Notes: generated by a model from the sequence alone, not told the origin. A stretch of 64,000 nucleotides of DNA from Alphaproteobacteria bacterium (GCA_037200005.1 JBBCGY010000001.1:889812-953811), one strand, 5' to 3'; shown: positions 20,782 to 41,303, counted from the stretch's first letter. Numbers and translations are program-made.

Positions 20782-20889
20782 AAGCTCGCTTTATATATGT
20801 GATCTTCGAAAAGATATTAATGTGCGTTTCGGGTTGAAAGCAATTACAATCAGTTCTTTACCAGTTCTCCATGGTTAAACGGCGCGACG

Positions 20890-22346: not shown

Positions 22347-22447
22347 GAATAATGCTCCAAATTATACGATACACAACGCCAATGCTTGCATTATCATTCC
22401 ATTTATTCAAGTAACAATATAAGTGCAAACTTCTCTAGGAGTTCCTT

Positions 22448-23167
22448 TTGCCCCAATACCGCATCTTCAACGGCACATTCACCCCGCGTCCCGGTCCGGC
22501 GCTGTTCACGATATTCGGCGTCGGCGTGCTGCTGGCGCTCGGCTGGTGGCAGCTCGACCGCATGGTCTGGAAGCATGATCTGATCGCAAGGATCGAGGCG
22601 GGCTTGAAGGCCGAGCCCGTCGCGCTGCCAGGCGCGATCCCCGATCCCAAGGCGCTCGATTATGTTCGCGTGCAGGTGACGGGGGTTATGCATCACGACA
22701 AGGAATTCCATCTCGCCGCGCGCGATAAATACGGGAGCTTCGGCTATAACATCCTGATTCCGCTTGAAACCGGCAGCGGATTTATTCTGCTCAATCGCGG
22801 TTTCGTGCCGTCGAAGAAAAAGCCGCCGGAAACCCGGCCCGAAGGACAGATTCAGGGCGCGGTGACGATCACCGGCATCGCGCGGGTTCCGGGCAAGCCG
22901 TCGATTTTCATGCCGGATAACCAGCCCGAAAAGAATTTCTGGCTGTTCATCGATTTCCCGAAAATGGCTGCTGTGGCCGGGATTAAGGCATTCATGCCGG
23001 TCGTGGTCGAAGCCGACGCGGCGCCCAATCCCGGCGGCTATCCGATAGGCGGGCAGACGCGGACGGATTTTCCCGATAATCATTTGGTCTATGCGATAAC
23101 CTGGTTTAGTCTGGCCGTGGCGCTGGCGGCGATATTCTTTCTCTCTCACTGGCGGCGCGAAGCATAA
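22448..23167 (+). CDS. surf1: SURF1-family cytochrome oxidase assembly protein
   Basis: N- and C-terminal TM helices. LVYAITWFSLAVAL. Position in the cox locus. Confidence 0.85.
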   Translation: MPQYRIFNGTFTPRPGPALFTIFGVGVLLALGWWQLDRMVWKHDLIARIEAGLKAEPVALPGAIPDPKALDYVRVQVTGVMHHDKEFHLAARDKYGSFGYNILIPLETGSGFILLNRGFVPSKKKPPETRPEGQIQGAVTITGIARVPGKPSIFMPDNQPEKNFWLFIDFPKMAAVAGIKAFMPVVVEADAAPNPGGYPIGGQTRTDFPDNHLVYAITWFSLAVALAAIFFLSHWRREA

Positions 23168-23208
23168 AGAGCGAGACGTGACGAAGTGGAATTGCTATTG
23201 CAGTTTAC

Positions 23209-23328
23209 GTCATTCCCGACGCCCCGCAGGGGCGAGCGGGAATCCCGTTTGGTTATTCTTGAAAAAAGAAAACGGGATTCCCGTTCACGTTATGCCCGCT
23301 TGGGCGGTCATAACGCGCCGGGAATGAC
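23209..23328. repeat. Nested inverted-repeat (stem-loop rich) element in the surf1-thrC intergenic region
   Basis: Outer IR GTCATTCCCG (23209-23218) / CGGGAATGAC (23319-23328). Inner 14-bp perfect IR CGGGAATCCCGTTT (23237-23250) / AAACGGGATTCCCG (23270-23283). Additional hairpins GCCCCgcaGGGGC and CGTTATGCCC...GGGCGGTCATAACG. Confidence 0.55.
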
Positions 23329-23367
23329 GGCTCTGTTTGAACTCATTAGGCTCTAAAGGGCACATAA

Positions 23368-24750
23368 TTGCGTTATCACAGCACACGCGGGCAAGCGCCG
23401 GAGCTTGATTTTCTGGACGCCGCGATGGCGGGCCTGGCGGCGGATGGCGGCCTTTATTTGCCCAAGGCATGGCCCAAAATCGCCGAAGCGGACATGGTTT
23501 CGTGGCGGGATCAGCCATACCGGAATATTGCCTTTAACGTCTTAAAGCCTCTGATCGGTGACGCTTTAACGAATGCGGAGTTGCAAGGCCTGATCGATCG
23601 CGCGCTCGCGTATTTCGCCCATCCCGATATTGCGCCCTTACGCCAATTAGACGAACGATTGTGGCTGCTCGAATTGTTTCACGGCCCGACGCTGGCATTC
23701 AAGGATATGGCGCTGCAATTCCTGGGACAATTGTTCGATTTCATGCTGGCGCGAAGCGGCAAGCGCGCGACGGTGATCGGCGCGACATCGGGTGACACCG
23801 GCTCGGCGGCGATGGCGGGCTGCGCCGGATGCAAGAATCTCGACGTTTTTATTCTCTATCCGCATAACCGGCCCAGCGAGATTCAGCGCCGCCAGATGAC
23901 AACCCACACCGCGCCGAATATTCACGCCATCGCCGTCGAAGGCAGCTTCGATGACTGCCAGGCGCTGGTGAAGGCGATCTTCAACGACCCCGCAGCGCGG
24001 GCGGCGTTCAATCCGATAGCGGTGAATTCGATCAACTGGGCGCGGATCGCGGCGCAGATCGTCTATTATTTCGTCGCGGCGATAAGGCTGGGCGCGCCGG
24101 CTGTCGCGCCGAGCTTCGTCGTGCCGACGGGCAATTTCGGCAATATCTTCGCCGGTTTCGCCGCGATGCAAATGGGACTGCCGGTTTCGCGGCTGGCGGC
24201 CGCGACCAACCGCAACGACGCGGTGCATCGCTTTTTCACCGAAGGGGAAATCATTCCCGCCGTCGTGCAGCCAAGCCTCAGCCCCAGCATGGATATTCAA
24301 GTCCCCAGCAATCTGGAGCGGTTGCTGTTCGCGCTGACGGATTATGACGGCGCGGCGACGCGCAAGATCATGGCCGCGGACCATCCGCGCCTGTCGCCGA
24401 TCATGCTTGGAAAGGCGCGGCAATATTTCACGTCGGCGCGGGTCGACGATGCCGAAACCTTGAAGGCCATGACGGATATTTATGGCGGAACCGGCTATTT
24501 GCTCGATCCCCACAGCGCGGTCGGAGTCGCCGCCGCGCGGCAGCTGGCGCGCGAACTGCCGGAGCCGGTCGTCTGCCTCGCCACCGCGCATCCGGCGAAA
24601 TTCCCGGAAGCCGCCGCCAGCGCCATTCACCATCCGCTCGATCCGCCGCCGGAGATCGCGGCGCTGTATGATCTGCCGGAGCGCATAACCATCTTGCCGT
24701 CCGACTACCGGCAAGTCACCGATTATATCAGGGAACACAGAACAGCATGA
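23368..24750 (+). CDS. thrC: Threonine synthase
   Basis: PLP-lysine motif FHGPTLAFKDMALQ. TTG start. 460 aa. Confidence 0.9.
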   Translation: MRYHSTRGQAPELDFLDAAMAGLAADGGLYLPKAWPKIAEADMVSWRDQPYRNIAFNVLKPLIGDALTNAELQGLIDRALAYFAHPDIAPLRQLDERLWLLELFHGPTLAFKDMALQFLGQLFDFMLARSGKRATVIGATSGDTGSAAMAGCAGCKNLDVFILYPHNRPSEIQRRQMTTHTAPNIHAIAVEGSFDDCQALVKAIFNDPAARAAFNPIAVNSINWARIAAQIVYYFVAAIRLGAPAVAPSFVVPTGNFGNIFAGFAAMQMGLPVSRLAAATNRNDAVHRFFTEGEIIPAVVQPSLSPSMDIQVPSNLERLLFALTDYDGAATRKIMAADHPRLSPIMLGKARQYFTSARVDDAETLKAMTDIYGGTGYLLDPHSAVGVAAARQLARELPEPVVCLATAHPAKFPEAAASAIHHPLDPPPEIAALYDLPERITILPSDYRQVTDYIREHRTA

Positions 24751-25244
24751 CGGTCCGGATTTCAAAACTCGCCAATGGTTTGACGGTGGCCACCGACACC
24801 ATGCCCGATTCCTACAGCGTCGCCTTCGGCGTGTGGGCGGGGGTTGGAACCCGCGACGAGCCGAAAGAGGCGCAAGGAGTCGCGCATCTGGTCGAGCATA
24901 TGCTGTTCAAGGGTACGAAACGGCGCAGCGCCATCGAAATTTCCGAGGCGATGGAGGGCGTGGGCGGCTACATGAACGCCTATACCTCGCGCGAAGAGAC
25001 GGCCTATCACGCGCGCATGCTGCCCGAGCATGTCGAGCGCGGCTGCGATATCATATCCGATATGCTGATGCATTCGGTGATCGATCCGGTCGAGCTTGAC
25101 CGCGAACGCGCGGTCATCATCCAGGAAATCGGCCAGTCTCTCGATGCCCCCGACGATCATATTTTCGATCTGATGCAGGAAACGGCTTTTCCGGGGCAGG
25201 CAATCGTGAAAGCGCCATTATATGACGACCAAAAGGAATCATAA
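24747..25244 (+). pseudogene. M16-family zinc peptidase truncated after about 155 aa. The 3' remainder is missing.
   Basis: HxxEH motif HLVEHMLFKG and the N-terminal M16 fold. Homology ends near 25207 (FPGQAI), about 270 aa short of full length. The region overlaps the end of a minus-strand island gene. Confidence 0.65.
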
Positions 25245-26201
25245 CCGAACCCCAGCCACGGATTATGACTCATCACCGCCTTGATGACGGCAGGCCAGAT
25301 GACTGTTCTGCCCGATAACGTGGCATCGCGCCCCATCATTGCGGTTGCCGATGCGAGTTCTGACGTATCGACCATGAACATCATCGGCACAATAACAACC
25401 AATATAATTACCCCCGATATATGATCCCACTCTGGTTCTTCTCATCAATTTCGTAAGATAAAAAATCCCTATCATCGACGTCAGCAAAAGCCATGCGCCG
25501 CGCGATAACGACCCAATGGCAAGAATGATTGATATAACGAACAGAAAAATCCCCATTCTGCGCGATGTTTCGGCATGCATCAGCAGGAGAGCGATCAATG
25601 TGCTGGCAACCATCGTGCTGCCCATTGTGTTCTTGTGGTTAAAATAGCCGCGAAATGCCGGATAATGCTTATCGTGATGGATGCCCTGCGCCGGGTCGAG
25701 AATGACCGCCAGCAAGGTCACTAGACAGACGGCAATCATGCAGTAGCCTAGAATCCTAAGGAATTGCGGCGACGAGTACCTGGTTACGAAATAGAAGGCC
25801 AGCATCGTACCGCCGAGCGCATTGATCGAACGCCTGAGCGTCACGGTCGGATCAATCGACCACACGACTGAAAGCACCGTCAGGACGCCGATCACCGCCA
25901 AAGGCCAGGCGGCCTTGATCACGGGAAGGCTTTTTCTCCATCTGATCACCAGATAAAGCAGCGCGTAAAAATAAATCGGCATAAGAATGATCTGGCGAAT
26001 TGGATTGACGATATCGCCCTGCCCTCTTTGAGCGATCAAAGGCGAGCCTACGTGCGAGTCTTCGTCACCGCCCGTGCCGTAGAAAAGCACGCCGCATGCG
26101 CCCGTAACCATAAGAATGGCGACCAAGATAAGCAAGAATTCGAGGCTGAAAATCCTCACCCGCTTATTCTTATTCAAGCTTTCACTATACTGCGTATCCA
26201 T
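25157..26201 (-). pseudogene. O-antigen ligase/Wzy_C-like polytopic membrane protein, frameshifted near 25400
   Basis: Multi-TM N-terminal part in ORF 25263-26201. Wzy_C-like C-terminal piece (GRTVIWPAVIKAVMSHNPWLGFGYDSFWSSY) in ORF 25157-25402 in another frame. Confidence 0.45.
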
Positions 26202-26204
26202 ATC

Positions 26205-27354
26205 TTACGCCTTCTCCAGAAATTCATGCAGCGCGCGCCACATCGGTTTGCGCCGCATATTATCATCAAGGGGCAGCCCCCGGATCCGTCGCCCTGTGGG
26301 ATTGCTCTTATTCCACTTCGCATTGGACAGCCAGCTATGGCGGTCGCTGAGACCCCAGGTCAAAATTTGTTTCGGCACGGCGACCGAAGAAATAATATCC
26401 AAGAATTCCTTCGTTTTAGCCGCGACCCGCTTATCGTTTTCTTCTTGCGTAGCGCGGGCGGAATCAAAAACGTCCAGCTCGGTAATGATGACTTCCAGGC
26501 CCAGACTCTTCGCTTCCTTGCAGAAATTCTCGAGAGGATCCAGCTTCGATCCGGTATGCATGTGAGCTTGCAGCCCCACCGCATGAATGGGAACGTTTTT
26601 GTCCTTAAGGCCGCGAAGCAGCTTCAAAGCCGCCTTGGCTTTAACAGACCCCGCCTCGATCTGGTAATCATTATAGACCAATTGCGCATCAGGATCCGCC
26701 TGCGCCGCCATCCGGAAAGCTTTTTCGACATATGAATCCCCCATGGCCTCCCGCCACGGCGTATCCCGCATCTGGTCTCCAAGCCACCATGCCTCACCGG
26801 GCTTGAGAGCTTCATTGACGACATCCCAGGATAAAAATTTTCCCTTATAGCGGGACATGACGGCGCCGATATGCTCTTCCATCAAAGCCTCGGCCTTGCT
26901 TTTATCGTCTTCCAGCGCCTTCTTGGCCCAAGCGGGCAAAGCCTCGTACCAGATCAGCGTATGCCCGCGCATTTTCATGCCATGGCTCTGCGCGTATTCA
27001 AGCAGCTTGTCGGTCGGGCCGAAATTCCATTTGTCACGCTCCGGATGAATTATATCCCATTTCGTGGCGCCCTCCGCGACGACGATGTTGCACTCCCCGC
27101 GCCACCGCATCGCTGAAATCCGCTTCATAATCTTTTCCGCCCTTGGATATATCCAGCCGCGCGGCATCGGTGGCGCAGCCGAAATAAATTCCCTTCTTGG
27201 CCGCCGTTTCACGCAGGGGCGGCAGGGATTCATAATCATATCCGGCCGCAGCGGTCTGCGCCGCCGCGAATTTCGGCAGCATCGCTCCAGCCGCGACCGC
27301 TGCGGAAAGCTCGATGAAGTCGCGCCTTGTCAAATCTCCGGTTCGATTTTTCAT
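26205..27354 (-). CDS. GH10 glycoside hydrolase (endo-beta-1,4-xylanase family) with Tat signal, frameshifted near 27100-27240
   Basis: Catalytic regions WDVVNEAL and ITELDV. The Tat leader and N-terminus (TRRDFIELSAAVAAGAMLPKFAAA) are in ORF 27034-27354 in another frame. Paralog of 30679-31818. Confidence 0.65.
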
Positions 27355-28517
27355 GCGGCCTCCTCTCTTTTCCTGGATGGAATGTACTTTTCCATGGCCT
27401 GCCTTAATTCAATATCCTCGACAAAGTCTTCCGGCGAGAAGTCGCTTTCCTTATAACGCCCGTATTTCCAGTTATCGGAAATAGGCTTGAAATGGCGATA
27501 GACATACTCCTTCGCGGGCAGGAATTTGCTCGGCTGGTTGGCGATGCTGTGCACCGTCCATGTATTAAGGGCCGCAGAGCATTTGCGAGGCACCGCGCAC
27601 CATTTGTTGGCGCATTTCGACGTGTCTTCTTTCTCAAAATAATAATAATGCGCATGGCGGCGCACGCCGCCCGTAATTTCGGCGGCGCTCGCATTGCTTA
27701 TCCAGACTCCGCCGAAATGCGTCACGCCGAAGATCGAAGCCTCGGCGCGCTCATAGACGGATTGCGGCGATTTCGAGACGATCAGCTCGTCGATGTCGCA
27801 GTTCAGTACGCTCCGCGCCTTTTGCAGGAACCTGAAACGGGCGTGCTGAAGAACGCCAATCTGGCAGAAAACGGAATCCCACGGCGCGATCTTCCCGCCG
27901 ACGCCGCCGGAAACTCCCCCCTGAGGCCCATATTTGAAGGGCCACGAAATCACCAGGATGAGAAGGCCGGGAAACGCCGACGAAAGCGCATCCTGCAGTT
28001 CGCCCGGCGAGTATTTGTCCGAATTGTTGTCGTAGAACAGGACCGCATCCGTTCCCTGGCTGTTCACGTAATATGTTATCCAGTCTATGATCCAATGGAT
28101 CTCATTGTTCTTGGATAGCGTCAGCAAGACGCGCTTGCCCGCGAACAGGCCGTTCCCGTCCGGCTGGACATCAATGTCGAAAGAGCCGAGATCGCCGCGA
28201 AGGGATATTTTCTTGTCGTCGCTCTTAATCCAAATATCGTTAGCCAGTTTTCGATCATAAATCCTGTTTTGGAAATTCAAGGCTCCCAGCTTGCTCGCAA
28301 AGTATGGATATCGCGTCAGGCGCTCTTTAAGGTTAAAAAGCGGCGGCCCCTGAAAAACAACGTATTTTCCTGACGCATACACGTCATAAAACAGCGTCTT
28401 CCAATCATATTGGCCTTCGTAATTTTCATTCCTTAGGCTTAATGGCCTTGGCGCATCCCTGGCAACAGGCACGTCGTCAGGAATCGTGCAAATGCTTAGC
28501 TTTATCGTATTGGGCAT
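27351..28517 (-). CDS. Hypothetical protein with DxD-like motif (NCDIDELIV). Possible glycosyltransferase. About 45% GC.
   Basis: 388 aa, no TM segment, AT-rich codon usage unlike its neighbours. Sits within the polysaccharide gene cluster. Confidence 0.35.
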   Translation of the reverse strand: MPNTIKLSICTIPDDVPVARDAPRPLSLRNENYEGQYDWKTLFYDVYASGKYVVFQGPPLFNLKERLTRYPYFASKLGALNFQNRIYDRKLANDIWIKSDDKKISLRGDLGSFDIDVQPDGNGLFAGKRVLLTLSKNNEIHWIIDWITYYVNSQGTDAVLFYDNNSDKYSPGELQDALSSAFPGLLILVISWPFKYGPQGGVSGGVGGKIAPWDSVFCQIGVLQHARFRFLQKARSVLNCDIDELIVSKSPQSVYERAEASIFGVTHFGGVWISNASAAEITGGVRRHAHYYYFEKEDTSKCANKWCAVPRKCSAALNTWTVHSIANQPSKFLPAKEYVYRHFKPISDNWKYGRYKESDFSPEDFVEDIELRQAMEKYIPSRKREEAA

Positions 28518-28627
28518 AAACTTCTCCTGACGAGCCGGCCATTTATAATACTTCTCTGTAATTCCAATGCCTTTATACCCGGATTTATTACTTTCAACAT
28601 ATTGTTTTATCTACCTATAGGGCGGTT

Positions 28628-29650
28628 TTATGGCAAAAAAACCAGTCTTTGTAAATTATAGCGAGTCAGACCCTTATAGATCAGAACCGGGATGCCTATG
28701 CCCGCAACCATGCCGCTCAATAAATGAATGCCCGGCGAGACGATGCCCACTTTCAGCAGCATAACCCGCCATGCCGCCAGGAAGATGATATGCATGACGA
28801 AAACGATGAGGGAAACCTTGCCCAATGCCGCCAAAGCCCTGCCGATGGGGAACTTGCTTAACCACTGGCTCGCCAAAAACACCAAAAACATCGCGGCAAA
28901 GGTCGCCGGCAGGACGATAATGCTGAAATACGGCACATGCTCTGAAATGCCCAGGGTCAGAAATGCCGCAAAAAGCATGGGAGAAAGCGCTCCCGCGATC
29001 ACGCATCGCCTGTGGGTCACGATCGCCTGAGGCCAGGATTTAGAGGCGGCATAGGCCCCCAGGAAGTAAAATACCCCGAAATCCGCGAGGCTCGCATATT
29101 CGGCGGAATCGATGTTCGCGGCCTCGGGATACGGTTCCACCGCCAGATGCCGGGCCAGATAAAGCCCGATGGCGATGATGAAGGCGAGGCCATACCGATC
29201 CTTCAAGGCCGCGGCGACAAGATGAAAAATCAGCAAGGCATACAGAAACCAGAACTGGGCGACGGGAATGTAAAACGGGGTCAACAAAGCTTCGATGCCG
29301 ATGGGATTATTGACCTGCTTGGACATCACGACCTTAAGGCCGACCTGAAGAATGGCCCAAAAGAAATACATCGGCACCAGCAGCTTGGTGCGGCGCCACG
29401 CGGAAATCCTGGCCGACGACCGGCTCAGGCTGCCATGCACATTATATCCCGCCAGCAAAAGGAATAGCGGCATATGCCAAAGATAAAATGAATAATCGAC
29501 GACCTCCCAAAGACTGTCAGCGGAAGAAATCCCCGCATTGACTAGCCCGCGCCAGACATGGCTATAGACCACGGCGGTGATGCCAATGCCTTTGGCGATA
29601 TCCTGAGCAGCGCTTCGGTCAATGAATTTTTGCTGATTTGTTCCGGTCAC
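28628..29650 (-). CDS. Acyltransferase family 3 (OafA/OpgC-like) integral membrane O-acyltransferase
   Basis: About 10 TM helices and the N-terminal AT3 conserved segment (ITAVVYSHV...WHMPLFLLLAGY). Confidence 0.75.
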   Translation of the reverse strand: MTGTNQQKFIDRSAAQDIAKGIGITAVVYSHVWRGLVNAGISSADSLWEVVDYSFYLWHMPLFLLLAGYNVHGSLSRSSARISAWRRTKLLVPMYFFWAILQVGLKVVMSKQVNNPIGIEALLTPFYIPVAQFWFLYALLIFHLVAAALKDRYGLAFIIAIGLYLARHLAVEPYPEAANIDSAEYASLADFGVFYFLGAYAASKSWPQAIVTHRRCVIAGALSPMLFAAFLTLGISEHVPYFSIIVLPATFAAMFLVFLASQWLSKFPIGRALAALGKVSLIVFVMHIIFLAAWRVMLLKVGIVSPGIHLLSGMVAGIGIPVLIYKGLTRYNLQRLVFLP

Positions 29651-30675
29651 GTCGTTATCGCGTCTAGAACTTTGATCCGGCGCAGAACCAGGACCTTAAG
29701 GGCAACAGGCCCCAAAATGCCCGCCGCGATCAGGATCGGGAGGAAAATCAGGAAATGATAACCATCCCAATTCATGAAACGCATCAGAACGCCCTTTGTC
29801 AGACCAATGAAGATAGTGTTGAACAGATAAATCACGAACGTATAGCCGGCAAGGAAGGCAAGGATACTGGAACGGCTGAAGACCGGCCGACGCATCACGG
29901 CATGGATCGCGGGCAAGGCAAGAAGATCAAGCGCATCCCTGCATAACTCCCAGTAGGGAAATGGGCTCATCACGGCCAAAAGCGCAAGCGATAATATGAA
30001 AACCGCCGCCAGAACCAGCCAGTGGCGGTCGAGAAACCGCCGGTAGGATTCCATATATCGAACCGTCACGCCGCCCAGTATGAAGAATACGAAGAAACCT
30101 CCCACCCGCCACAGATAGAAATACTCGGGCAGCGGCGCGTAATGCAGCGCCGCCGCCAGCGCGAGCAGAGCCCATGCCTTGCCTCTCATGAGCCACATCA
30201 GCGGCGGCACGATCGCGCAATAGACGAACATCACATAGACGTACCAGATCGACGTCGCCGGGCCGGAGTCCGTATTGATGAACATCGCCTTCAGCCCGTC
30301 CGTCAGGCCCGGCGGCTGGCGGTCGACGGTCATGAAATGGCTGAACGCCAGTTTACCGAGGATAATCGTCAGGCCGAACAGCACGAACGGCAGCAGAAAG
30401 CGGAAAGCCCGCTTTTTCAGGAAATCCCAGTATTTTCCTGGCGGCGTTTCCGCCGCGCCGGTGTAAAACATCACGATGCCGCTCAGATACATGAACAAGG
30501 GCATGTGAAACATATAGATGGCGTCGCTTAGCGACATGAACCATTCATTGCCGGCAGGCTGAGCCGCGCCACGGCTTACGATATGGCCGATCACGACCAG
30601 CAGGATGGCGAAGCCCTTGGCCTGATCGATGTCATGCAGCCTCGGCCGCGGCGGTTTTGCGGAAATCCCGGACAT
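29647..30675 (-). CDS. Acyltransferase family 3 membrane protein
   Basis: AKGFAILLVVIGHIV...FHMPLFMYLSG. Polytopic. 4-nt overlap with the downstream AT3 gene. Confidence 0.75.
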   Translation of the reverse strand: MSGISAKPPRPRLHDIDQAKGFAILLVVIGHIVSRGAAQPAGNEWFMSLSDAIYMFHMPLFMYLSGIVMFYTGAAETPPGKYWDFLKKRAFRFLLPFVLFGLTIILGKLAFSHFMTVDRQPPGLTDGLKAMFINTDSGPATSIWYVYVMFVYCAIVPPLMWLMRGKAWALLALAAALHYAPLPEYFYLWRVGGFFVFFILGGVTVRYMESYRRFLDRHWLVLAAVFILSLALLAVMSPFPYWELCRDALDLLALPAIHAVMRRPVFSRSSILAFLAGYTFVIYLFNTIFIGLTKGVLMRFMNWDGYHFLIFLPILIAAGILGPVALKVLVLRRIKVLDAITT

Positions 30676-30678
30676 AAC

Positions 30679-31818
30679 CTACGCTTTTTCCAGGAATTCA
30701 TGAAGCACATGCCACATCGGCTTGCGCTTCAAGTCATCATCGAGCGGCAGGCCGCGAATATGATGCCCTTTCGGATTGCGCCACACGTTCCATTGCGCGC
30801 TGGACAGCCAGCTATGGCGATCGGTCAGGCCCCAGGCCAGGATTTGCTTGGGCACCGCGACCGTGAACACGATGTCCAGGAACTCGCGCAGTTTGGCGGC
30901 AACCAGCTCATCGGTCTTTTTCGAATCGGTATTGAAGGACGGGTCGAAAACATCGAGCTCCGTGATGATGATATCCAAACCGAGCTTCTTCGCTTCCTCG
31001 CATAAAGCCTTCAGCGGCGCGAAGTTCGTCTCAAGGTCGATATGCGCCTGCAAACCAAGGGCATGAATAGGGACATTCTTGTCTTTCAGGCCGCGCAATA
31101 ATTTTATCGCCGACGCCGATTTCGCGGGCCGCTGCTCGATATCGTAATCGTTATAGACCAGTTGAACGTCCGGATCGGCCTGCGCCGCAAGCCGGAAGGC
31201 TTTTTCTATATAAGACGGCCCCAGCGCCTTCAGCCACGGCGTGTCGCGCAGTCCTTCCTCATTCCCCTCGCCCCTGCCCTTGAGGGCTTCGTTCACGACA
31301 TCCCAGGAAACGAGCTTGCCTTTGTAATGGCCCGCCACTTTGGCGATATATTCCTCCATCAGGGCTTCGCCCCTGCCCTCTTTGAGAGCTTGCTCCGCCC
31401 AGGCCGGAAACGCCGCGTGCCATATCAGCGTATGGCCGCGCATCTTCATGTCGTATTTCTTCGCATATTCCAATAGCTGGTCGGCGAGCCAGAAATCCCA
31501 TTTCTCCGGCGTCGGATGGAGAGCGTCCCATTTCATGATGCTCTCGGCGACCAAGAGATTGCATTCGCGGGCGATGGCGTCGTTGAAGTCCTGCTCGTAA
31601 TAGGGGCTGAACGCCTTGGTAATCTCCAGACGCGCGGGCTCGACGCTCGAACCATAGAGGATGCCCTTCTTCGCCGCCGTTTCGCGCAGCGGAGGCAAGG
31701 ATTCATAATCGTATTTTACGGTTTCAGTTTCCGCCATCGCAAATTTCGGAAGCATCGCGCTCGTGGCCGTCGCCGCGGATAGGGCGATAAAGTCGCGGCG
31801 AGTTAGCTCTCGTTTCAT
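30679..31818 (-). CDS. GH10 glycoside hydrolase with Tat signal (intact paralog)
   Basis: Twin-arginine leader TRRDFIALSAATATSAMLPKFAMA. GH10 catalytic Glu contexts WDVVNEAL and IITELDV. Confidence 0.85.
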   Translation of the reverse strand: MKRELTRRDFIALSAATATSAMLPKFAMAETETVKYDYESLPPLRETAAKKGILYGSSVEPARLEITKAFSPYYEQDFNDAIARECNLLVAESIMKWDALHPTPEKWDFWLADQLLEYAKKYDMKMRGHTLIWHAAFPAWAEQALKEGRGEALMEEYIAKVAGHYKGKLVSWDVVNEALKGRGEGNEEGLRDTPWLKALGPSYIEKAFRLAAQADPDVQLVYNDYDIEQRPAKSASAIKLLRGLKDKNVPIHALGLQAHIDLETNFAPLKALCEEAKKLGLDIIITELDVFDPSFNTDSKKTDELVAAKLREFLDIVFTVAVPKQILAWGLTDRHSWLSSAQWNVWRNPKGHHIRGLPLDDDLKRKPMWHVLHEFLEKA

Positions 31819-31821
31819 TTT

Positions 31822-33753
31822 TTATCCTCCTGTCGCGTTCTCCGCGATCTTCAGTACGGGCAGCATGCCAGCCTTGCGGATTTTCTCAAACACATGCGCC
31901 GAACCCTCTGCCGTCAGATGGCCGTAGTCGAACTGGATCGGGACATCTTCTCCGGCCATGGTCTCGCATGCCTGTCCGCCGGGGCACATAACGTCAAAGA
32001 AGGAGATATAGCGCACGCCGTTTTCCGCAGCGAGCTTCGCCATCTCGCCGTCAAGCTGCGCAAAAGTTTCGACGCGGTGGCGAAAGGAATAGGCGGCGTC
32101 GTTCTTTTGGGCGGAAAGCGCGAGCAGCCGGGGCAACGCCGCGTCATACTGCACCATCGGCCCGAACAGCACGACGGCGTCCGCGTATTTCTTCGCATAG
32201 GCCAGAGTCTCGGGCAAGCGCGCCACGTCCTGGCTATTCCAGCGTCCGGCGATGAGCAGGACGTTCACCCGATGAGCGGGAAGATATTCCCGAAAAACAT
32301 AATCCATGAGCTTTGTGCAGCGCTCATAGGAGCTCATAGAATGATTGAGCGTCGGCTTGCAGCCTGAAGCAGCCGCCTGCATGATATTCAAATCGGGGAA
32401 AACCGCTGAAAGGCCGTGCCATAAATGAGCGGCATGGGAATCCCCCAGCAGGAGATAATCGTTATTTTTACCTTCACTGCGTTGCAGGCAGAAAGAAGGG
32501 TCATAGACCATATCTCCGCTTTCTATAAAGCAAGACGCGGCCTTACTGGTCTTTTCGCCGTCATAATTCATATATGAAGCGATCTTGATGACTTGAGGCG
32601 AGTAGCGGAATGCGAGCCCGTCGGCGACCACGATTCCGATCGCCAGCAGCGTGCAGAAGGCGGCGGCGGCTCCGGCCCAGCGGAACAGGACGGGGCGCGT
32701 GAACGATTTCCGGTCGCGGAACGGCGTCTCGACAAATTTCCATGAGGCCGCGGCCAGGACGATGGAAAGGCCGATGACATAAAACTTCTCGACGCGCGGC
32801 GGCAACCCGGCGGACATGAATCCCATGCCGTGGAACACGATCACCGGCCAATGCCAGAGATAGAGCGAATACGAGATAAGGCCGATAAATACGACTGGCG
32901 GCAGCGACAGCAGCTTGCCGCCCCAGGATTCCCCCGTCTCCCCCGCCGCGATAAACAGCGCCGCGCCCAAACAGGGCAGAAGCGCCGCAAAACCAGGAAA
33001 CGGCGTGTCCGAGGAATAGAGCGGAACGCAGACGAGGATCATCGCAAGACCGGCGAGGCTGGCCAGGTTACGCCATAGCGCGCCACGGATTTCCGGCACG
33101 AGCCTCATGCCCAGGACGCAGCCGATCAGCAGCTCCCAGGCGCGGCTGTGCAGCAGATAATAAGACGCCGACGAATGCTGCGCCACGCCGTAGGCGCTGA
33201 GGCCGAGCGAAAACACGGCCAATCCCAGAACAGTCAGCTTCAAATGGCGGCGGAAGCGGCGATAGGCCAGCATGAGCAGGAGCGGAAAGAAGATATAGAA
33301 CTGTTCCTCAACCGCCAGCGACCATGTATGCAGCAACGGCTTCGACATCGAAGCCCCTTCGAAATAGCCCGCCTGGCTCCAAAACAGGAAATTGGAGGCG
33401 GAAAACAGCGCCGCCGGGATGGATTTCGAGAAATCCTTCATCTCGGTCGGCATCAGATAAGCGTAGCCGATGGCCGTCGCGCCGAGCATCGTCACGACCA
33501 GCGCCGGGATGATGCGGCGGATGCGGCGCTCGTAGAAATTGACGATGGAGAAATTCCCGGCTTCGATCTCCGTGGCGATGATGCGCGAGATCAGATAGCC
33601 CGAGATGATGAAAAAAACATCCACGCCGATGAAACCGCCATGGCAGAACGGCATCTCGACATGGCAAGCGGCGACTGCCATGACCGCGACGGCGCGAAGG
33701 CCGTCTATATCCGGGCGGTATTTTGTTCCCTTATGCGCATGTCCCTGAATCAT
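31822..33753 (-). CDS. AT3 acyltransferase fused to C-terminal SGNH hydrolase-like domain (OafA/YrhL-type O-acetyltransferase)
   Basis: N-terminal AT3 membrane domain (DGLRAVAVMAVAACHV...FFIISGYL). C-terminal soluble domain with LLLGDSHAAHL. Confidence 0.8.
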   Translation of the reverse strand: MIQGHAHKGTKYRPDIDGLRAVAVMAVAACHVEMPFCHGGFIGVDVFFIISGYLISRIIATEIEAGNFSIVNFYERRIRRIIPALVVTMLGATAIGYAYLMPTEMKDFSKSIPAALFSASNFLFWSQAGYFEGASMSKPLLHTWSLAVEEQFYIFFPLLLMLAYRRFRRHLKLTVLGLAVFSLGLSAYGVAQHSSASYYLLHSRAWELLIGCVLGMRLVPEIRGALWRNLASLAGLAMILVCVPLYSSDTPFPGFAALLPCLGAALFIAAGETGESWGGKLLSLPPVVFIGLISYSLYLWHWPVIVFHGMGFMSAGLPPRVEKFYVIGLSIVLAAASWKFVETPFRDRKSFTRPVLFRWAGAAAAFCTLLAIGIVVADGLAFRYSPQVIKIASYMNYDGEKTSKAASCFIESGDMVYDPSFCLQRSEGKNNDYLLLGDSHAAHLWHGLSAVFPDLNIMQAAASGCKPTLNHSMSSYERCTKLMDYVFREYLPAHRVNVLLIAGRWNSQDVARLPETLAYAKKYADAVVLFGPMVQYDAALPRLLALSAQKNDAAYSFRHRVETFAQLDGEMAKLAAENGVRYISFFDVMCPGGQACETMAGEDVPIQFDYGHLTAEGSAHVFEKIRKAGMLPVLKIAENATGG

Positions 33754-34889
33754 GGCGAATCAATTCCTCTTGTCTGGGGTACGGCTTGCGGAGAAGCCGA
33801 AGAGAATAATTTACGGAAAACGGCGGAGATGCGGCGGCGTCCCCGGACCTCGATCAGCGCATAGCTGGCCCAAGCGACAAGCCATGCGGCGACAATGACC
33901 GCCGGGGCAAAAACCATGTCCGCGTTCGCCAAGTCGGCAGGCAACACAATTTTAAGACACCGCTTGATCACATCCACCAGAATGCCATGCCACAGATACA
34001 GCGAATAGGAGATCAGTCCCAGGTGATAGATCACCCGGTTCCCGAACAACACGGCGCTTGCGCGGCTGTTGTAATACAGGGAGATAATCAGGAACGGGAT
34101 CACCAGCACGACCGCCACATCGCTGCCCGGAATCGCCAACAGCCCTATAAGCAGAGCGAGAGTTACAAGGACGGCGCCATCGCCTGACATCAACCGGCGG
34201 CATGCGGAATTTTGCGACAGCCTATAAGCTCCCAACCCAAGGCAGAATTCTCCAAGGCAACGCAGCGCGGGCAAAAAGCTGTATTTGTGCGCGTCGAGAT
34301 TGACGACATCGAGCGGGCCCATCTCCCCCTGAGAGGAAACTGCGACCATGAAAATACCCACCACCGAAGCCAAGACTTGCAGCCATACCCAGCGCGAAAA
34401 GGCGATGTATATCAAAAGCGGAAAGAGAGAATAGGCCAGCAATTCGGTGCTTACCGACCACGAATTTCCGACCATGATATGAGCGCCGAGACCCCAGCTA
34501 TGAATCAGCAGGAAATTGGCGATAAGATCGTATGCGCTCAGTTCAAAGTCGTGAACGCCGGAGATATTGACCAGCCATTTCGCGTAGAAGATGGCCGTGA
34601 CCACGAAATAGACCGGATAAATGCGCGCGATCCGATTGACCATGAAGGATGCATAACGAGGCCAGACGCAGCCGTTCTTGAAGTCTTCGCTATATCGAAG
34701 CGCGAGCACGAAGCCGCTGAGCACGAAGAAAAGATCGACGCACAGATATCCCCAGTTCAAGGGAAGGGTGTCGAGAAAGGTGGAATCCTGGTTTTGCCGG
34801 GCGTGCCATTGGATATGATAAAGCATAACCATAAAGGCGGCCAGCCCGCGAACGCCGGTCAACGGCTTGATTTCGTTTTTCATGGCCAT
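33750..34889 (-). CDS. Acyltransferase family 3 membrane protein
   Basis: LTGVRGLAAFMVMLYHI...DLFFVLSGFVL. Polytopic. 4-nt overlap with the downstream gene. Confidence 0.75.
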   Translation of the reverse strand: MAMKNEIKPLTGVRGLAAFMVMLYHIQWHARQNQDSTFLDTLPLNWGYLCVDLFFVLSGFVLALRYSEDFKNGCVWPRYASFMVNRIARIYPVYFVVTAIFYAKWLVNISGVHDFELSAYDLIANFLLIHSWGLGAHIMVGNSWSVSTELLAYSLFPLLIYIAFSRWVWLQVLASVVGIFMVAVSSQGEMGPLDVVNLDAHKYSFLPALRCLGEFCLGLGAYRLSQNSACRRLMSGDGAVLVTLALLIGLLAIPGSDVAVVLVIPFLIISLYYNSRASAVLFGNRVIYHLGLISYSLYLWHGILVDVIKRCLKIVLPADLANADMVFAPAVIVAAWLVAWASYALIEVRGRRRISAVFRKLFSSASPQAVPQTRGIDSP

Positions 34890-35010
34890 GGCCCGCTTTT
34901 CATTGCCATTCCGGACGCCCCTTCATGGAGGCGATCCGGAATCCAGGGAAACAGTGCTTTGCTTGGCATGGATTCCGGTCTCGCGCCCAAGGACGCGCCG
35001 GAATGACAAT

Positions 35011-37155
35011 TCAGCCCTGATAATAATGCTTATATTTCTCGTAACTGCCGAAACCGTATTTTCTTTGCTCGTTCATATCGACCTGAGTGAGAACAGCGCC
35101 GGCCAGCTTGACGTTGAACAGCCGGAGTTTTTTCAATCCCTCAGCCACGCTTTCGGTGGTGGTCGATCCCCAGCGCACGAGGAAGAGAGCGGTATCGACC
35201 TGCTTTGCCATCATGGCGGAGTCGGCAACGGCCATGATCGGCGGAGAGTCGATGATAACGATGTCGTACTTTTCCCGCACCGCGATCAGCAACAGCTCCA
35301 TTTGATGGGAACTCAGCAGATCGTGCGGATTAGGAACCTTGGTATGGGCTACGATGACATCGGCGCCGCTGGTGTCGCGCTGGATGGCGTCTTCGAGTTT
35401 CGCATCATGTGCCAGTACCATGGCCAGATCGGGCTTAGTGATATCAAGGCCCAGCAGGCTATGCACCGAAGGGCGGCGCAAATCGGCATCGATCAGCAGC
35501 ACCTTCTTGCCCGACTGGGCGATCACGCGCGTGAGCGACGTCGCGAAACAGCTCTTGCCTTCCTTCGGCAGGGAACTCGTCACCATAATGATCTTATGAG
35601 GGGCGTCCACATTCGAAAAGTGAATCGCCGTCGCGATCGCGCGTATGGATTCCGCATAGCCCGACAAAGGCTTTTCCAGGATATAGTCGCCAATCGGCTG
35701 CCCAGGCGGAGCATCGGCAACGGGTACGACGCCAAGCCCGTTGATGCCGCATAGCTCCTCGAGCTCGCCGAGAGAGCGGACGCCGCGATTAAGGTATTCA
35801 AAGCCGAAAGCCAGAATGGTCCCAAGCCCGCCGCCAAGAAAAATTCCAAGCAGCAGGAACATCCTCTTCTTGGGGAAATACGCCTCCACGGGAATGTCCG
35901 CCCGCGCCACGATGCGCGAGTCGGCCATTTGCAAGCCTTGCTGTTCGACAATTTGCTTGGACCTGCTCAGGAAGCTTTCATAAAGAGTCCGGGTCACGGC
36001 GGCCTGGCGCTGCAACTGGCGCAAAGTCACCATCGACTGATTGCCTGAAACCGTCACGCCTTCGACGTCCGCAAGCTGCTTCTCCAGCATCGTGACCTTG
36101 TTTTTGGCGACATTGTAGTCGTTTTCGATGCTGGCCGTTATCTTCTGCACTTCATCGCTGATCTTGCCGCGAATGCTGTCCAGCTGGTTGCGGATATTCA
36201 CGATCGTCGGATGCAGCCTGCCATAGCGCTTGGACATATCGGCTTCCTGGCGCAGCACTTCGGCTTCCTGCTGCTTCAAGCCGCGGATCAGTTCCGAGGA
36301 AATGGCGATGGAGGATGATTCCTGCTGCCTTAGGCTCCGCCCCTTGACGCTGTTATAGCGGGCTTCGGCCTGTGCCAGTTCGCCGCGCGCGTCGAGCAAT
36401 TGGGTATTGATGGCGCCCAGCTGCTGCTGCGTGAGGGTTTCATCGCCGCCCTTGCCGACAAGGTTGTTGTCTTCCTTGAAAGTTTCGACGGCTTTCTCAG
36501 CTTTTCTGACTTCTTCCTGCAGAGCTTCCAGCCGCTTGTTGAACCAGATCGTCGCTTTTTCGGACGTGTCGTATTTGACCTCGATCTGGTTCTCCAGATA
36601 AGCCTCGGCAAAGGCGTTGGCGATTCTCGCCGCCTTTTCCGGATTGACGTCGCGGTAATCGATGTTGATGCTATACGAACGGCCGTCATTGACGACATCG
36701 AGCCCCAGAAGCAAATTATTCACGACAATCGTGCGTTCTTCCTCGGCGCGCTTGCTGGCGGTTTCCCCGTCCTCGTCGCTGCCGAAAAGCTGGCTCAGCA
36801 AACCTCTCCCGCCTCCTTCGACGGCGGGGTTAAGCACGGGGTCTTTCATGAGGTCGAGTTTATCGACGACTTTATTGGCGACCGTTTTGGATTGAATCGC
36901 CGTAACGTCGCTGCGAATGGCTAAAGTATCGGGCAAAAGGCTGGACACGACTTCTTCCAGATCGGTGACGCGCGTCTTGCGCGGGTCGAGAATGACCACG
37001 GCCTCGGCCATATAGCGCTTCGGCAATATAAATCCCAGCGTGAGCATCAGAAGCGTGACGCAGCCGGCAACGGCCGAGATAAAAGCTGCATTACGACGCG
37101 CGAAGAAATATATCTTGCGGAGGTCGTTCATCAAAAAAAGATCATCTTGTTCCAT
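35011..37155 (-). CDS. Polysaccharide co-polymerase / tyrosine autokinase (Wzc/ExoP/GumC family)
   Basis: Wzz-like N-terminal domain with 2 TM helices and a long coiled coil. C-terminal BY-kinase with Walker A SSLPKEGKS and Walker B VIIDSPP. Confidence 0.85.
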   Translation of the reverse strand: MEQDDLFLMNDLRKIYFFARRNAAFISAVAGCVTLLMLTLGFILPKRYMAEAVVILDPRKTRVTDLEEVVSSLLPDTLAIRSDVTAIQSKTVANKVVDKLDLMKDPVLNPAVEGGGRGLLSQLFGSDEDGETASKRAEEERTIVVNNLLLGLDVVNDGRSYSINIDYRDVNPEKAARIANAFAEAYLENQIEVKYDTSEKATIWFNKRLEALQEEVRKAEKAVETFKEDNNLVGKGGDETLTQQQLGAINTQLLDARGELAQAEARYNSVKGRSLRQQESSSIAISSELIRGLKQQEAEVLRQEADMSKRYGRLHPTIVNIRNQLDSIRGKISDEVQKITASIENDYNVAKNKVTMLEKQLADVEGVTVSGNQSMVTLRQLQRQAAVTRTLYESFLSRSKQIVEQQGLQMADSRIVARADIPVEAYFPKKRMFLLLGIFLGGGLGTILAFGFEYLNRGVRSLGELEELCGINGLGVVPVADAPPGQPIGDYILEKPLSGYAESIRAIATAIHFSNVDAPHKIIMVTSSLPKEGKSCFATSLTRVIAQSGKKVLLIDADLRRPSVHSLLGLDITKPDLAMVLAHDAKLEDAIQRDTSGADVIVAHTKVPNPHDLLSSHQMELLLIAVREKYDIVIIDSPPIMAVADSAMMAKQVDTALFLVRWGSTTTESVAEGLKKLRLFNVKLAGAVLTQVDMNEQRKYGFGSYEKYKHYYQG

Positions 37156-37425
37156 AATACGCGCCTGTCACATGAGTGGTTGCATTGAAAGATCGGGTTT
37201 CTAAAATAACGTCCTGATTATTCTTTTATATTTCTGCTCCATCGCTCTCTATGCCGTCACAATGCCTTTGTCGGCGCTGACATCAACAATCCCCCACCGA
37301 TTCCGAAACGGCGGAACAATTGCTGCAGTGCACCTGATTAAGGATCGCAGCTTCTAACATTTCCTTCATTCCGATAGCAACTACAAATTTAATTTCAAAG
37401 GGATAGAAATCTCAAATAATTTGCC

Positions 37426-38208
37426 TTAACCACGATTTGCCGGAGATTTCTCGAAAAACAGTTCATAGGGCTTCAGAAACCTGGCCGCGAAAGCAAGCGT
37501 TAGGCGCTGCCAATCCGCCTCGCCGGTCAGGTTCTCGAACTGGGATCGATGCTCCATCAATGCGGCTTTTTTACGGTCAAGATAGCCTCCGGCGTCGATT
37601 CGCTTATGAGTTAGCAAGGGCGAAACAGCCATGGCATGGCGCAGAGCGCCCATAGGCCAGAACCAGAGCGGGTATTCATAGACCGGACAGGCAATTACCC
37701 GGCTATTCACCAGCCTCATTACCGCCGCCGCCACCGCGCGATGATCCGGATGCCGGTCGATGCCGTAAGGCGAAAAAACAATCGCCGGAGCGCATAATTT
37801 GGCCTGTATTTCGATATCGCCGGCGATTTTCTCGATATGCGCGGCTGCCTTGCCATCCGGATAGGACAGAAATACGACATCGTCCGCTGTCACCCCAAGC
37901 CGTCCGGCAGCGCGGCGCGCTTCCTCCTGCCGAAGAGCGGCCAAAGCTTCGGGCGTCATGACCGTGGACTGGGTTGAAGAGCTTCCATCCGTAACGATAA
38001 CGATACGAACTGGAAATCCACTGTCACGCAGCCGCAGAACAGCCGCTCCGCAGCCCAGGGTTTCGTCGTCAGGATGGGGGGCGATCACCAGCGCCGGACC
38101 GGCAGGAAGGCTTTGCGTGATGTCGACGCTTAGGAAGGCAAAGAATGCCTGAAAGACCTCAATGACCGCTCGTTTGACGGTTTCTTTTAGGGCTTGCATG
38201 GAGGCCAT
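37426..38208 (-). CDS. PIG-L/LmbE-family deacetylase
   Basis: VIAPHPDDETLGCGAAV zinc-binding motif. Confidence 0.8.
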   Translation of the reverse strand: MASMQALKETVKRAVIEVFQAFFAFLSVDITQSLPAGPALVIAPHPDDETLGCGAAVLRLRDSGFPVRIVIVTDGSSSTQSTVMTPEALAALRQEEARRAAGRLGVTADDVVFLSYPDGKAAAHIEKIAGDIEIQAKLCAPAIVFSPYGIDRHPDHRAVAAAVMRLVNSRVIACPVYEYPLWFWPMGALRHAMAVSPLLTHKRIDAGGYLDRKKAALMEHRSQFENLTGEADWQRLTLAFAARFLKPYELFFEKSPANRG

Positions 38209-38319
38209 CGAAGCCGCTCGCGAACTTATAAGGAAATATCTGAATCAGCCCTGCTCCGCCAAGAGGCTTCGCAGGGCACTCGGTTTTTCTAAGCGCGCAA
38301 GCGCGCTAAGAAAAACCGG

Positions 38320-38394
38320 TGGTGGGCGGTGAGGGGATCGAACCCCCGGCAGCCTCGGTGTAAACGAGATGCTCTACCGCTGAGCTAACCGCCC
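38320..38394 (-). tRNA. tRNA-Val (anticodon TAC)
   Basis: Minus-strand read GGGCGGTTAGCTCAGCGGTAGAGCATCTCGTTTACACCGAGGCTGCCGGGGGTTCGATCCCCTCACCGCCCACCA. Cloverleaf with anticodon loop TTTACAC. CCA encoded. Confidence 0.85.
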
Positions 38395-38429
38395 ACGCGC
38401 CGACATCCAACGACTGCTACGCGTTTCTG

Positions 38430-39041
38430 TCAAGCCAGAGAGCAATCCTTAGCCGCCGCCTGTCCGCCGGAGAGTTCCGGCCTGTCGGGCGCGGGAGGCT
38501 CCATAGTCCTGCGTGCGGAACTCAAGAGCTCATCCATGACGGCCTCTCTAACCAGGGGTTTATATCCACTGGCGACTTTGCAGCTATCGAGCATGGCGCC
38601 TTTCAGCGGATGGTGTTCCAAAGCTTCGTCGACGACATACTCTACATAGGGCCGCCGCTCTTCGACAGCGGTTTGCACGAGCACTTTTCTCACTAATTCC
38701 TCTAGCGTCATCCATTCGTCTGGCGGGAGATAAACGTCCCCAGATTCAATCCGGGCCTTAAGCCGCTTGCCGCTTCCGCTAGCCAGAGGAAAACCCTTAG
38801 AATCTGACCAAACATGACGCTTTTTCAGCTTTTTCAGCGCTTTCTCCTTGCGCTGGTCGAAATATTTGGCATCCATTTCCTGATCGAATGCCGCATTTTG
38901 CCGGACGGCTGATACGTAAGACCAGTAAGCCGGATGATGGAGGGCATGCTCCAAGACATCAGCGGCAGCCGCCTTCATTTCCTCATATCTTTGCGGACGA
39001 GTTTCTTGCACGCGCTGTAAAAAATCTTCAATTCTGGACAT
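38430..39041 (-). CDS. Hypothetical protein (203 aa)
   Basis: Long ORF with balanced composition between tRNA-Val and adk. No recognisable motif. Confidence 0.45.
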   Translation of the reverse strand: MSRIEDFLQRVQETRPQRYEEMKAAAADVLEHALHHPAYWSYVSAVRQNAAFDQEMDAKYFDQRKEKALKKLKKRHVWSDSKGFPLASGSGKRLKARIESGDVYLPPDEWMTLEELVRKVLVQTAVEERRPYVEYVVDEALEHHPLKGAMLDSCKVASGYKPLVREAVMDELLSSARRTMEPPAPDRPELSGGQAAAKDCSLA

Positions 39042-39135
39042 TATGCATCCCTCCTTAAAAATAGAATGAAATAGATATATCGGCCGATTATTGTTATTTC
39101 AAGCGGCCATCAAAAACCGCCGTAACATCACGCAA

Positions 39136-39786
39136 TTATTCGCATCGATCCAAAATAGCCGAGACGTCTTTCTCGACCTTGTCCATATCGGCCATGCCGT
39201 CGACCTGATGCAAAATACCCTTGGCCGCGTAGTAGGGGATGATCGGTTTCGTCTGTTCCTCATAGGCCTTAAGCCGCGTCTTCATGGTTTCGGCATTGTC
39301 GTCGGCGCGGCGGGTGAATTCCGTGCCGCCGCAAGCATCGCATACGCCGGGAGTCTTCGTCGGCTTGAACTTATCGTGATAACCGGCGCCGCATTTGGCG
39401 CATGTGAAGCGTCCGCTCACGCGCTCGACGAGAGCGGGAACATCGACCTTCAATTCGATGACGGCGCATAGAGGCTTGACCTTGGCCAGCATCGCGTCGA
39501 GAGCCTCGGCCTGAGCCGTGGTGCGGGGAAATCCATCGAGAATGACGCCTCTGGCGCAATCAGGCTCGGCCATGCGCGATGCAATGAGCCGGATCATCAA
39601 ATCGTCCGGCACCAGCTTTCCGGCATCCATGAGCGATTTGGCTTCGAGGCCGAGCGGCTCTCCCCGCTTGATGGCGGCACGCAGCATGTCGCCGGTGGAA
39701 AGCTGCACCATGGCGCGCGAAGTCTCGATCCTCTTGGCCTGGGTTCCCTTGCCCGCGCCCGGCGGTCCAAGCAAGATGATATTCAT
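39136..39786 (-). CDS. adk: Adenylate kinase
   Basis: P-loop GPPGAGKGTQ. Zinc lid CAKCGAGYH...CDACGG. Confidence 0.95.
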   Translation of the reverse strand: MNIILLGPPGAGKGTQAKRIETSRAMVQLSTGDMLRAAIKRGEPLGLEAKSLMDAGKLVPDDLMIRLIASRMAEPDCARGVILDGFPRTTAQAEALDAMLAKVKPLCAVIELKVDVPALVERVSGRFTCAKCGAGYHDKFKPTKTPGVCDACGGTEFTRRADDNAETMKTRLKAYEEQTKPIIPYYAAKGILHQVDGMADMDKVEKDVSAILDRCE

Positions 39787-39814
39787 GCGGTTCCTCGTAT
39801 TACGTCAACTTCTC

Positions 39815-41155: not shown

Positions 41156-41303
41156 TATCGGGATTCCGGAAACAAGAGGGGCAAATCAAATCGTTAAGGA
41201 TTTATGCCCTGTTCATCAAGCTCGCGCAAGCAAGAAGCCTGCTTCGCACTGCATCATCGCAATTGAGCGGCACCGGCCATCCCAAAAGAAAATTCCAGCC
41301 GTA

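Follow-up and report, generated by a model that had tools for sequence, protein, structure and literature searches.

A probable Wzx/Wzy-type polysaccharide locus with two GH10 glycanase genes and four AT3 acyltransferase genes, cut off by a contig end

In the succinoglycan (exo) cluster of Sinorhizobium meliloti, the polymerase ExoQ (Wzy) and the co-polymerase ExoP (Wzc) are accompanied by a GH16 glycanase, ExoK, and by two AT3 proteins, ExoH and ExoZ. OafA and OafB of Salmonella are AT3-SGNH acetyltransferases of the O-antigen. In the promonan cluster of Sphingomonas sp. LM7, the GH10 gene prmN adjoins prmO, which encodes an OafA-family AT3 protein; deletion of prmO abolished the exopolysaccharide (EPS), and the authors proposed that PrmO acts on a lipid-linked intermediate (PMC11340318). 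Promonan itself is a linear polymer dominated by 4-linked glucose (Glc) and 4-linked glucuronic acid (GlcA) (PMC11340318). In the Pss-I region of R. leguminosarum, the 14-gene pssW-pssE operon begins with pssW (PMC9961541), and PssW has been described as a GH10 enzyme yielding low-molecular-weight EPS (preprint 10.64898/2026.08.21.746188). The pairing of GH10 and AT3 inside a Wzy-type EPS cluster is already known from promonan and Pss-I. Here, we analyzed a polysaccharide locus with two GH10 and four AT3 genes in a 64,000-nt stretch of DNA from an uncultured Alphaproteobacteria bacterium (GCA_037200005.1, JBBCGY010000001.1:889812-953811), hereafter called the window. With a probability of about 0.75, we read this locus as the proximal portion of a gene cluster for EPS or capsule of the Wzx/Wzy-dependent type that is truncated by a contig end and whose own polymer is acylated by AT3 enzymes and trimmed by GH10 enzymes.

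Nine minus-strand open reading frames (ORFs) from 25263 to 37155 match the families named in the original prediction, which had been made from the sequence alone, and the Pfam matches bore out both the gene order and the families; the membrane ORF at the end of the series is the one without a Pfam match (Table 1). Six of the eight junctions between these genes are 4-nt overlaps or 3-nt gaps, an operon-like packing. The Wzc protein exceeded the NCBIfam cut-off of TIGR01007 (136.7 against 108) and fell just under that of TIGR01005 (379.5 against 411.7). Its Walker A (PKEGKS), A' (IDADLRRP), and B (IVIIDSPP) motifs are present, and its Tyr-rich C-terminal tail has 5 Tyr in the last 16 residues.

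Table 1. Features of the locus and its immediate surroundings (window positions)
Feature	Coordinates	Strand	Evidence and remarks
Wzc-type co-polymerase fused to BY tyrosine autokinase	35011..37155	-	Pfam Wzz + GNVR + AAA_31
AT3a, PrmO-like subgroup membrane acyltransferase	33750..34889	-	Pfam PF01757, 1.1e-27
AT3b, AT3 + periplasmic SGNH domain (OafA/OafB architecture)	31822..33753	-	PF01757, 5e-32; PF19040, 5.2e-30
GH10 copy 1, intact single-domain glycanase, predicted Tat export	30679..31818	-	PF00331, 9.2e-79
AT3c, short AT3, different subgroup, HMPLF motif	29647..30675	-	PF01757, 1.1e-36
AT3d, short AT3	28628..29650	-	PF01757, 6.5e-30
GT92-family glycosyltransferase, 388 aa	27351..28517	-	Pfam PF01697 Glyco_transf_92
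GH10 copy 2, split by 1-nt insertion	26205..27354	-	Repaired: 382 aa with Tat signal
Wzy/ExoQ-type polymerase gene	25201..26201	-	Frameshift near 25430; contig end falls at about residue 333
Artificial join	25200..25201		Contig base 1 (25200) meets last base (25201)
PIG-L/LmbE-family de-N-acetylase	37426..38208	-	Pfam PF02585, 1.4e-29
tRNA-Val (anticodon TAC)	38320..38394	-	ARAGORN + Rfam; directly upstream of the PIG-L/Wzc locus

Two of the earlier gene labels could be sharpened. The gene for what had been called a DxD protein is present, and this generic label is replaced by GT92: PF01697 was matched above its cut-off, although weakly (26.6 bits against 23, E 5.7e-6), and the NCBI name for the 388-aa protein is also that of the GT92 family. 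Its homologs, 42-52% identical, come mostly from Sphingomonadales, where the family is abundant; their neighbors include an AT3 gene (locus L089, 10001-12211) and GT2 and Wzx genes (L090/L091, 7466-11167). Most of these GT92-like homologs are without a precomputed Pfam domain in the database listing. The protein described as Wzy_C-like did not match PF04932 on the truncated, frameshifted ORF (25263-26201), and the label is carried instead by tblastn, in which the fragment was 37-46% identical, in two frames, to the Wzy_C proteins of loci L004, L006, and L008. PF04932 is carried by all Wzy homologs at 25-45% identity and also by those of the three loci; database homologs with this domain have 410-472 aa, the expected size is about 410-490 aa, and JGI lists close homologs under the name ExoQ.

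Outside the organism, the GH10 proteins of highest similarity (62, 51, and 46% identity) are encoded in L004, L006, and L008. In all three loci, a Wzy_C gene directly follows the GH10 gene, glycosyltransferase genes come next, and a Wzx flippase gene follows in L004 and L008. The order in L004 is Bac_transf, Metallophos, Wza, outer-membrane (OM) barrel, Wzc, AT3, GH10, Wzy, GT2, GT4, GT2, an unassigned gene, and Wzx. AT3a is 46.5% identical to the AT3 protein encoded between Wzc and GH10 in L004, the window Wzc is 34% identical to that of L004, and the window PIG-L is 45% identical to a PIG-L whose gene overlaps or abuts the GH10 gene in L006. From this orthology, together with that of Wzy, the conserved core is (PIG-L)-Wzc-AT3a-GH10-Wzy, to which the window lineage has added AT3b, AT3c, AT3d, GT92, and the second GH10. 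The PIG-L protein probably belongs to the system and would act on an N-acetyl sugar intermediate.

GTDB species representatives were scanned as well, which added 80 further GH10 loci at 31-40% identity and brought the total to 83. At least two Wzy-pathway families were found within 6 kb of GH10 in 34 of the 83 related loci, a lower bound, as the hidden Markov models (HMMs) for the neighbors were home-made from the loci just described and "non-EPS" loci are possibly under-called. Among the 34 are essentially all alphaproteobacterial branches (Rhizomicrobium, Bradyrhizobium, Rhizobium, Methylobacterium, Bosea, Sphingomonas, and Sphingobium) and cyanobacterial branches (Scytonema, Calothrix, Chlorogloeopsis, Brasilonema, and Fischerella). 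The cyanobacterial GH10 gene lies between WecG-type and Bac_transf genes in 6 of 8 loci, which suggests that it, too, encodes a conserved, uncharacterized EPS glycanase. In filamentous cyanobacteria (L011, L019, L035, L043, L049, and L058), such GH10 genes were seen inside large GT4/GT2/Wzy clusters. For a large Acidobacteria branch, no Wzy-pathway context was seen with the HMMs used. The adjacency of GH10 and Wzy in the three closest loci, the 34 loci with Wzy-pathway neighbors, and the precedents PrmN and PssW support the earlier idea that the GH10 proteins belong to a polysaccharide pathway and not to plant-xylan use.

Both GH10 proteins match PF00331 strongly (265 and 274 bits, cut-off 22). 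They share 63% amino acid identity over 379 residues when copy 2 is repaired, and 68.6% nucleotide identity over 1128 nt. The original figure of about 70% is close to this, but its restriction to the 3' ends does not hold: the similarity spans the full length and varies little from one part of the genes to another (61-78% per 100 nt). For this reason, gene conversion confined to the 3' ends was rejected. In a neighbor-joining tree (no bootstrap), the two window proteins are sisters and the L004 protein is next to them; as judged from the sequences, the pair is a lineage-specific duplication.

The acid/base motif SWDVVNEALK and the nucleophile motif I(I/V)ITELDVF occur in both copies, and WDVVNE and ITELD align to Thermotoga maritima XynB (1vbr), which is the nearest of the solved structures. 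N44 and Q87 of Cex, like their counterparts in related xylanases, contact xylose in the glycone subsites, and Q87 hinders sugars bearing C6. In the presumed Cex numbering, compared with the Cex sequence and with the Cex-like L079, the equivalents of N126, E127, H205, E233, and W273 show no variation across 85 sequences. At the positions of N44 and Q87, copy 1 has S/A and copy 2 has G/A. The N44 equivalent is Asn in 7 of 36 EPS-linked sequences versus 39 of 49 others (Fisher 5e-8), and the Q87 equivalent is Gln in 1 of 36 versus 17 of 49 (3e-4); these statistics ignore phylogenetic non-independence and are suggestive only.

Twin-arginine (Tat) signals had been claimed for both GH10 proteins. 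This is right for copy 1 (MKRELTRRDFIALSAATATSAMLPKFAMA; read by eye as TRRDFI...KFAMA) and for repaired copy 2 (by eye, TRRDFI...KFAAA), but the ORF 26205-27239 as deposited is without one, the true signal of copy 2 (MKNRTGDLTRRDFIELSAAVAAGAMLPKFAAA) lying upstream of it in another frame. In both signals, the twin-arginine motif precedes a hydrophobic region and an A-x-A cleavage site, again as read by eye. The Pfam TAT_signal profile scored 16.5 bits for copy 1, under its cut-off of 22.7. This short profile is often missed, and RRxFL is part of the GH10 family consensus.

When copy 1 was compared with copy 2 by tblastn, the N-terminal 81 aa of copy 2 were found in frame -3 (27336-27097) and the rest in frame -1 (27095-26208). 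The window reads GCGCGGGGAGTG at the split (GGGG, a G-run at 27095-27098), whereas a separately built Logan assembly (run SRR28211700; L002) reads GCGCGGGAGTG (GGG), which gives a single 382-aa ORF from 27354 to 26205. The Logan contig ends at window position 27091, 4 nt past the GGG/GGGG site (L002 13290-13304, window about 27091-27105), and the reads may be heterogeneous at this homopolymer, from sequencing error or strain-level variation. Two more genes are split: the Wzy homolog switches frame near 25430, and an ABC exporter (56862-58779, plus strand) is divided into ABC_membrane (56862-57914) and ABC_tran (57892-58779) on overlapping ORFs in different frames. These two domains normally form one fused exporter. 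Because three split genes occur within 64 kb and one is contradicted by L002, the frameshifts point to assembly indels rather than gene decay; L002 backs this for GH10 copy 2 only.

Exact look-ups showed that the window matches the two ends of contig JBBCBH010010965.1 of GCA_037975565.1 (1,828,711 bp). Positions 25201-41818 (L001) are the reverse complement of contig 1812094-1828711, and positions 9024-25200 (L003) are the reverse of contig 1-16177. On one side of the join, an M16 peptidase ORF (24747-25244, plus strand) matches its Pfam model only to aa 152, which is base 25200; on the other side, Wzy homology extends to 25202 in tblastn. Since two unrelated genes are cut exactly at the assembler's break point, this is a linear contig end and not a biological deletion, and the join, as well as any feature across it, is artificial. 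The left boundary of the locus, formerly set at 25157, has to be moved: 25157-25200 is outside the locus and belongs to an unrelated M16 peptidase fragment beyond the join.

Because the contig ends inside the Wzy gene, the window does not show whether a flippase, an initiating transferase, or more glycosyltransferases are absent, and the argument built on the missing initiating transferase and flippase in the original prediction is not supported. The Wzy ORF was present on one contig only, and a search past the contig end gave no second contig of the organism that extends the locus. A homolog search with the repaired Wzy as query likewise gave no complete Wzy of this organism. It is solely the stop of the contig inside the Wzy gene that makes the cluster look incomplete. 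With a contig-end join and at least one assembly indel in the window, conclusions on missing genes or pseudogenes would be wrong here.

All four AT3 proteins matched PF01757 at 97-127 bits (cut-off 31) and keep the conserved N-terminal His and the RxxR-type motifs. The SGNH domain of AT3b matched PF19040 at 105 bits, with the GDSH and DYGH (DxxH) blocks present. In addition to its counterpart in L004, AT3a is 41-47% identical to the AT3 proteins whose genes adjoin GH10 in the promonan-like loci L060, L063, and L072; it is the ortholog of a PrmO-type acyltransferase and the conserved core partner of the GH10 gene. AT3c had a weak NolL-like match under the NCBIfam cut-off and no relatives among the 83 related loci; NCBIfam gave no equivalog-level name for any AT3, for either GH10, or for GT92. 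In pairwise BLASTP, AT3a and AT3b are 27% identical and AT3c and AT3d 23%, with no significant similarity between AT3a/b and AT3c/d. An AT3-AT3-GH10 triad had been seen twice in the locus, and as a duplication this does not stand: only the GH10 genes are paralogous, and the AT3 genes are mutually divergent. As the AT3 pairs are without cross-similarity, the repeated triad is a coincidence of family labels, and segmental duplication of the whole block was ruled out for the same reason. By analogy with PrmO, AT3a likely catalyzes a core assembly step rather than a decoration. The heavily O-acylated glycan envisaged originally keeps the standing of something we infer, and AT3a may be no decoration enzyme.

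Gene families, synteny, intact catalytic motifs, and assembly artefacts are directly observed; from them we infer the enzymatic roles and the substrate as follows. The genes would form one tightly packed minus-strand operon, cut off by the contig end. Repeat units would be built on undecaprenyl phosphate by the GT92-like enzyme and by glycosyltransferases expected beyond the contig end, and PIG-L may de-N-acetylate an amino sugar. AT3a, as a PrmO-type enzyme, probably acylates the lipid-linked intermediate, and AT3b, AT3c, and AT3d would transfer more O-acyl groups to the glycan on the periplasmic side, with cytoplasmic acyl-CoA as the donor. Flipped units would then be polymerized by Wzy, with polymerization and export controlled by Wzc. 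The two GH10 enzymes would be exported folded via Tat and would cleave beta-1,4 bonds of the cell's own polymer in the periplasm. Such cleavage may serve to trim chain length or to clear stalled polymer, a role proposed for ExoK, PssW, and similar hydrolases.

Several observations weigh against the EPS or capsule reading. No phenotype was visible when prmN was deleted (PMC11340318). In the deposited sequence, two of the nine genes are frameshifted, and the window shows no Wza, Wzx, or initiating transferase. Genuine xylanases, such as T. maritima XynB, provide the closest solved structures, and the EPS-linked GH10 proteins are biochemically uncharacterized. The non-independence behind the N44/Q87 statistics and the home-made neighbor HMMs belong to the same side.

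Three other explanations were weighed, each of which ranks as less likely. The locus could be a decaying remnant that makes no polymer, with GH10 copy 2 and Wzy as pseudogenes in a small genome (about 1.8 Mb) and the M16 junction as a real deletion scar in a circular chromosome. The frameshifts in these two genes would fit, as would the third in the ABC exporter, the two contig ends shown as contiguous in the window, and the lack of Wza, Wzx, and an initiating transferase from view. We nevertheless consider decay unlikely, as the extra G of GH10 copy 2 is not found in L002, both genes at the junction are cut exactly at the arbitrary break of the assembler, which marks a linear contig end and no scar, and the remaining genes are undamaged and keep conserved catalytic motifs. 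Alternatively, the glycan could be an O-antigen or another lipopolysaccharide (LPS)-linked glycan, and the Wzy_C protein a WaaL-type ligase instead of an EPS polymerase. The Wzy_C domain is common to O-antigen ligases, a weak RfaL match was obtained under the cut-off, and O-antigen ligase is the name given to some Wzy homologs; O-antigen is also acetylated by AT3-SGNH enzymes, OafA among them. However, the adjacent BY-kinase co-polymerase with its Tyr-rich tail is typical of EPS and capsule systems (PCP-2a) and not of O-antigen Wzz, the close Wzy homologs bear the name ExoQ, and L004 has Wza and an OM barrel beside Wzc, so that the chances of an LPS-linked glycan appear slim.

We give the lowest standing to the explanation that the GH10 proteins serve plant-xylan use as ordinary endo-xylanases, secreted or periplasmic, and lie among polysaccharide genes by chance. 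Both genes are placed inside the operon at 3-4 nt spacing, their adjacency to Wzy is conserved down to 46% identity, and no xylosidase, xylose-catabolism, or sugar-uptake genes occur in the 64-kb window. The strong similarity to the Pfam GH10 profile and to xylanases of solved structure, the intact catalytic residues, and the database name endo-1,4-beta-xylanase would all be expected of a xylanase, but the equivalents of N44 and Q87 are replaced. The reading as an EPS or capsule cluster with its own glycanases is therefore preferred to all three.

The locus itself adds little, being another Wzy-type cluster with the GH10 and AT3 pairing reported for promonan and Pss-I. What may matter more is that GH10 is a recurrent, Tat-targeted part of EPS clusters in several phyla, with changed sugar-binding residues. 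We tentatively raise the possibility, itself rather doubtful, that the GH10 proteins of Wzx/Wzy clusters form a functionally distinct branch of endoglycanases for EPS backbones of the beta-1,4 Glc/GlcA type and are not xylanases; on this reading, the branch may span alphaproteobacteria, cyanobacteria, and Gemmatimonadota. If so, the loss of N44 and Q87 would open the -2 subsite to C6 substituents, and the duplicated pair may have diverged for differently acylated forms of one polymer. EPS-linked GH10 proteins would also be a target in the search for glycanases specific to EPS, with possible uses such as dispersing biofilms or tailoring polymers.

Upstream of the locus, the order is PIG-L, tRNA-Val, a 203-aa ORF, adk, secY, and the ribosomal protein operon; the 203-aa ORF (38430-39041, minus strand), between adk and tRNA-Val, has no Pfam or NCBIfam match. 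The GC content of the locus is 0.51-0.59, compared with 0.59-0.62 for the flanking housekeeping genes. The tRNA-Val gene is a possible island boundary, and the lower GC content would fit an acquired island next to a tRNA gene; no integrase was seen, and the far end of the putative island lies beyond the contig. Rfam found only two tRNAs in the window. Promoter-like sites were at chance level (10 observed versus 9.4 expected), and terminator-like sites numbered 26 versus 16.6 expected (sd 4.2). Elsewhere in the window, a type II/IV pilus-like secretion cluster (6019-13677, plus strand) comprises a secretin, a T2SSE ATPase, a T2SSF platform protein, and several unassigned ORFs, and adjoins a cytochrome c oxidase operon. 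A low-GC stretch (0.477) with a DUF983 ORF occupies 20000-22346, and the sole match of a 370-aa protein at 21234-22346 (minus strand) is a ClpX-type C4 zinc finger.

Compared with the described systems, AT3b has the same fused AT3 and SGNH architecture as OafA/OafB, including the SGNH catalytic blocks, but the similarity is at family level, with no NCBIfam equivalog match, and the context in the window is EPS and not O-antigen. The succinoglycan cluster likewise encodes an endoglycanase of its own and at least two AT3 proteins alongside a Wzy pathway, and the window Wzy homologs are named ExoQ; however, its glycanase is GH16 instead of GH10, Tat export is a feature of the window, and there are two AT3 proteins against four. 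In Pss-I, which we likened by description, a GH10 gene is co-transcribed with EPS glycosyltransferase genes of a Wzx/Wzy pathway, although pssW heads the glycosyltransferase operon and the acyl- and pyruvyl-decorating enzymes are of other types.

The promonan cluster differs from the window in having separate Wzz and kinase genes in place of a fused Wzc, and the window has two GH10 genes, three extra AT3 genes, and GT92. Beyond GH10 and AT3, the prm set contains WecG, four GT2, Wzx, Wza, an OM porin, an AAA+ ATPase, and GH16; no GH16, WecG, GT2, or AAA+ ATPase is in view in the window, but the contig ends. GH10 identity is about 35%, and the likeness was drawn through L060, L063, and L072 and not from the LM7 sequence itself. 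These sphingomonad loci share the prm gene order, and it is their AT3 proteins that are 41-47% identical to AT3a. As in promonan, the window holds a Wzy-dependent alphaproteobacterial cluster with GH10 near a PrmO-like AT3, with AT3b separating AT3a from GH10, and its GH10 proteins fall into the same broad EPS-linked group as those of the sphingomonad loci with prm order.

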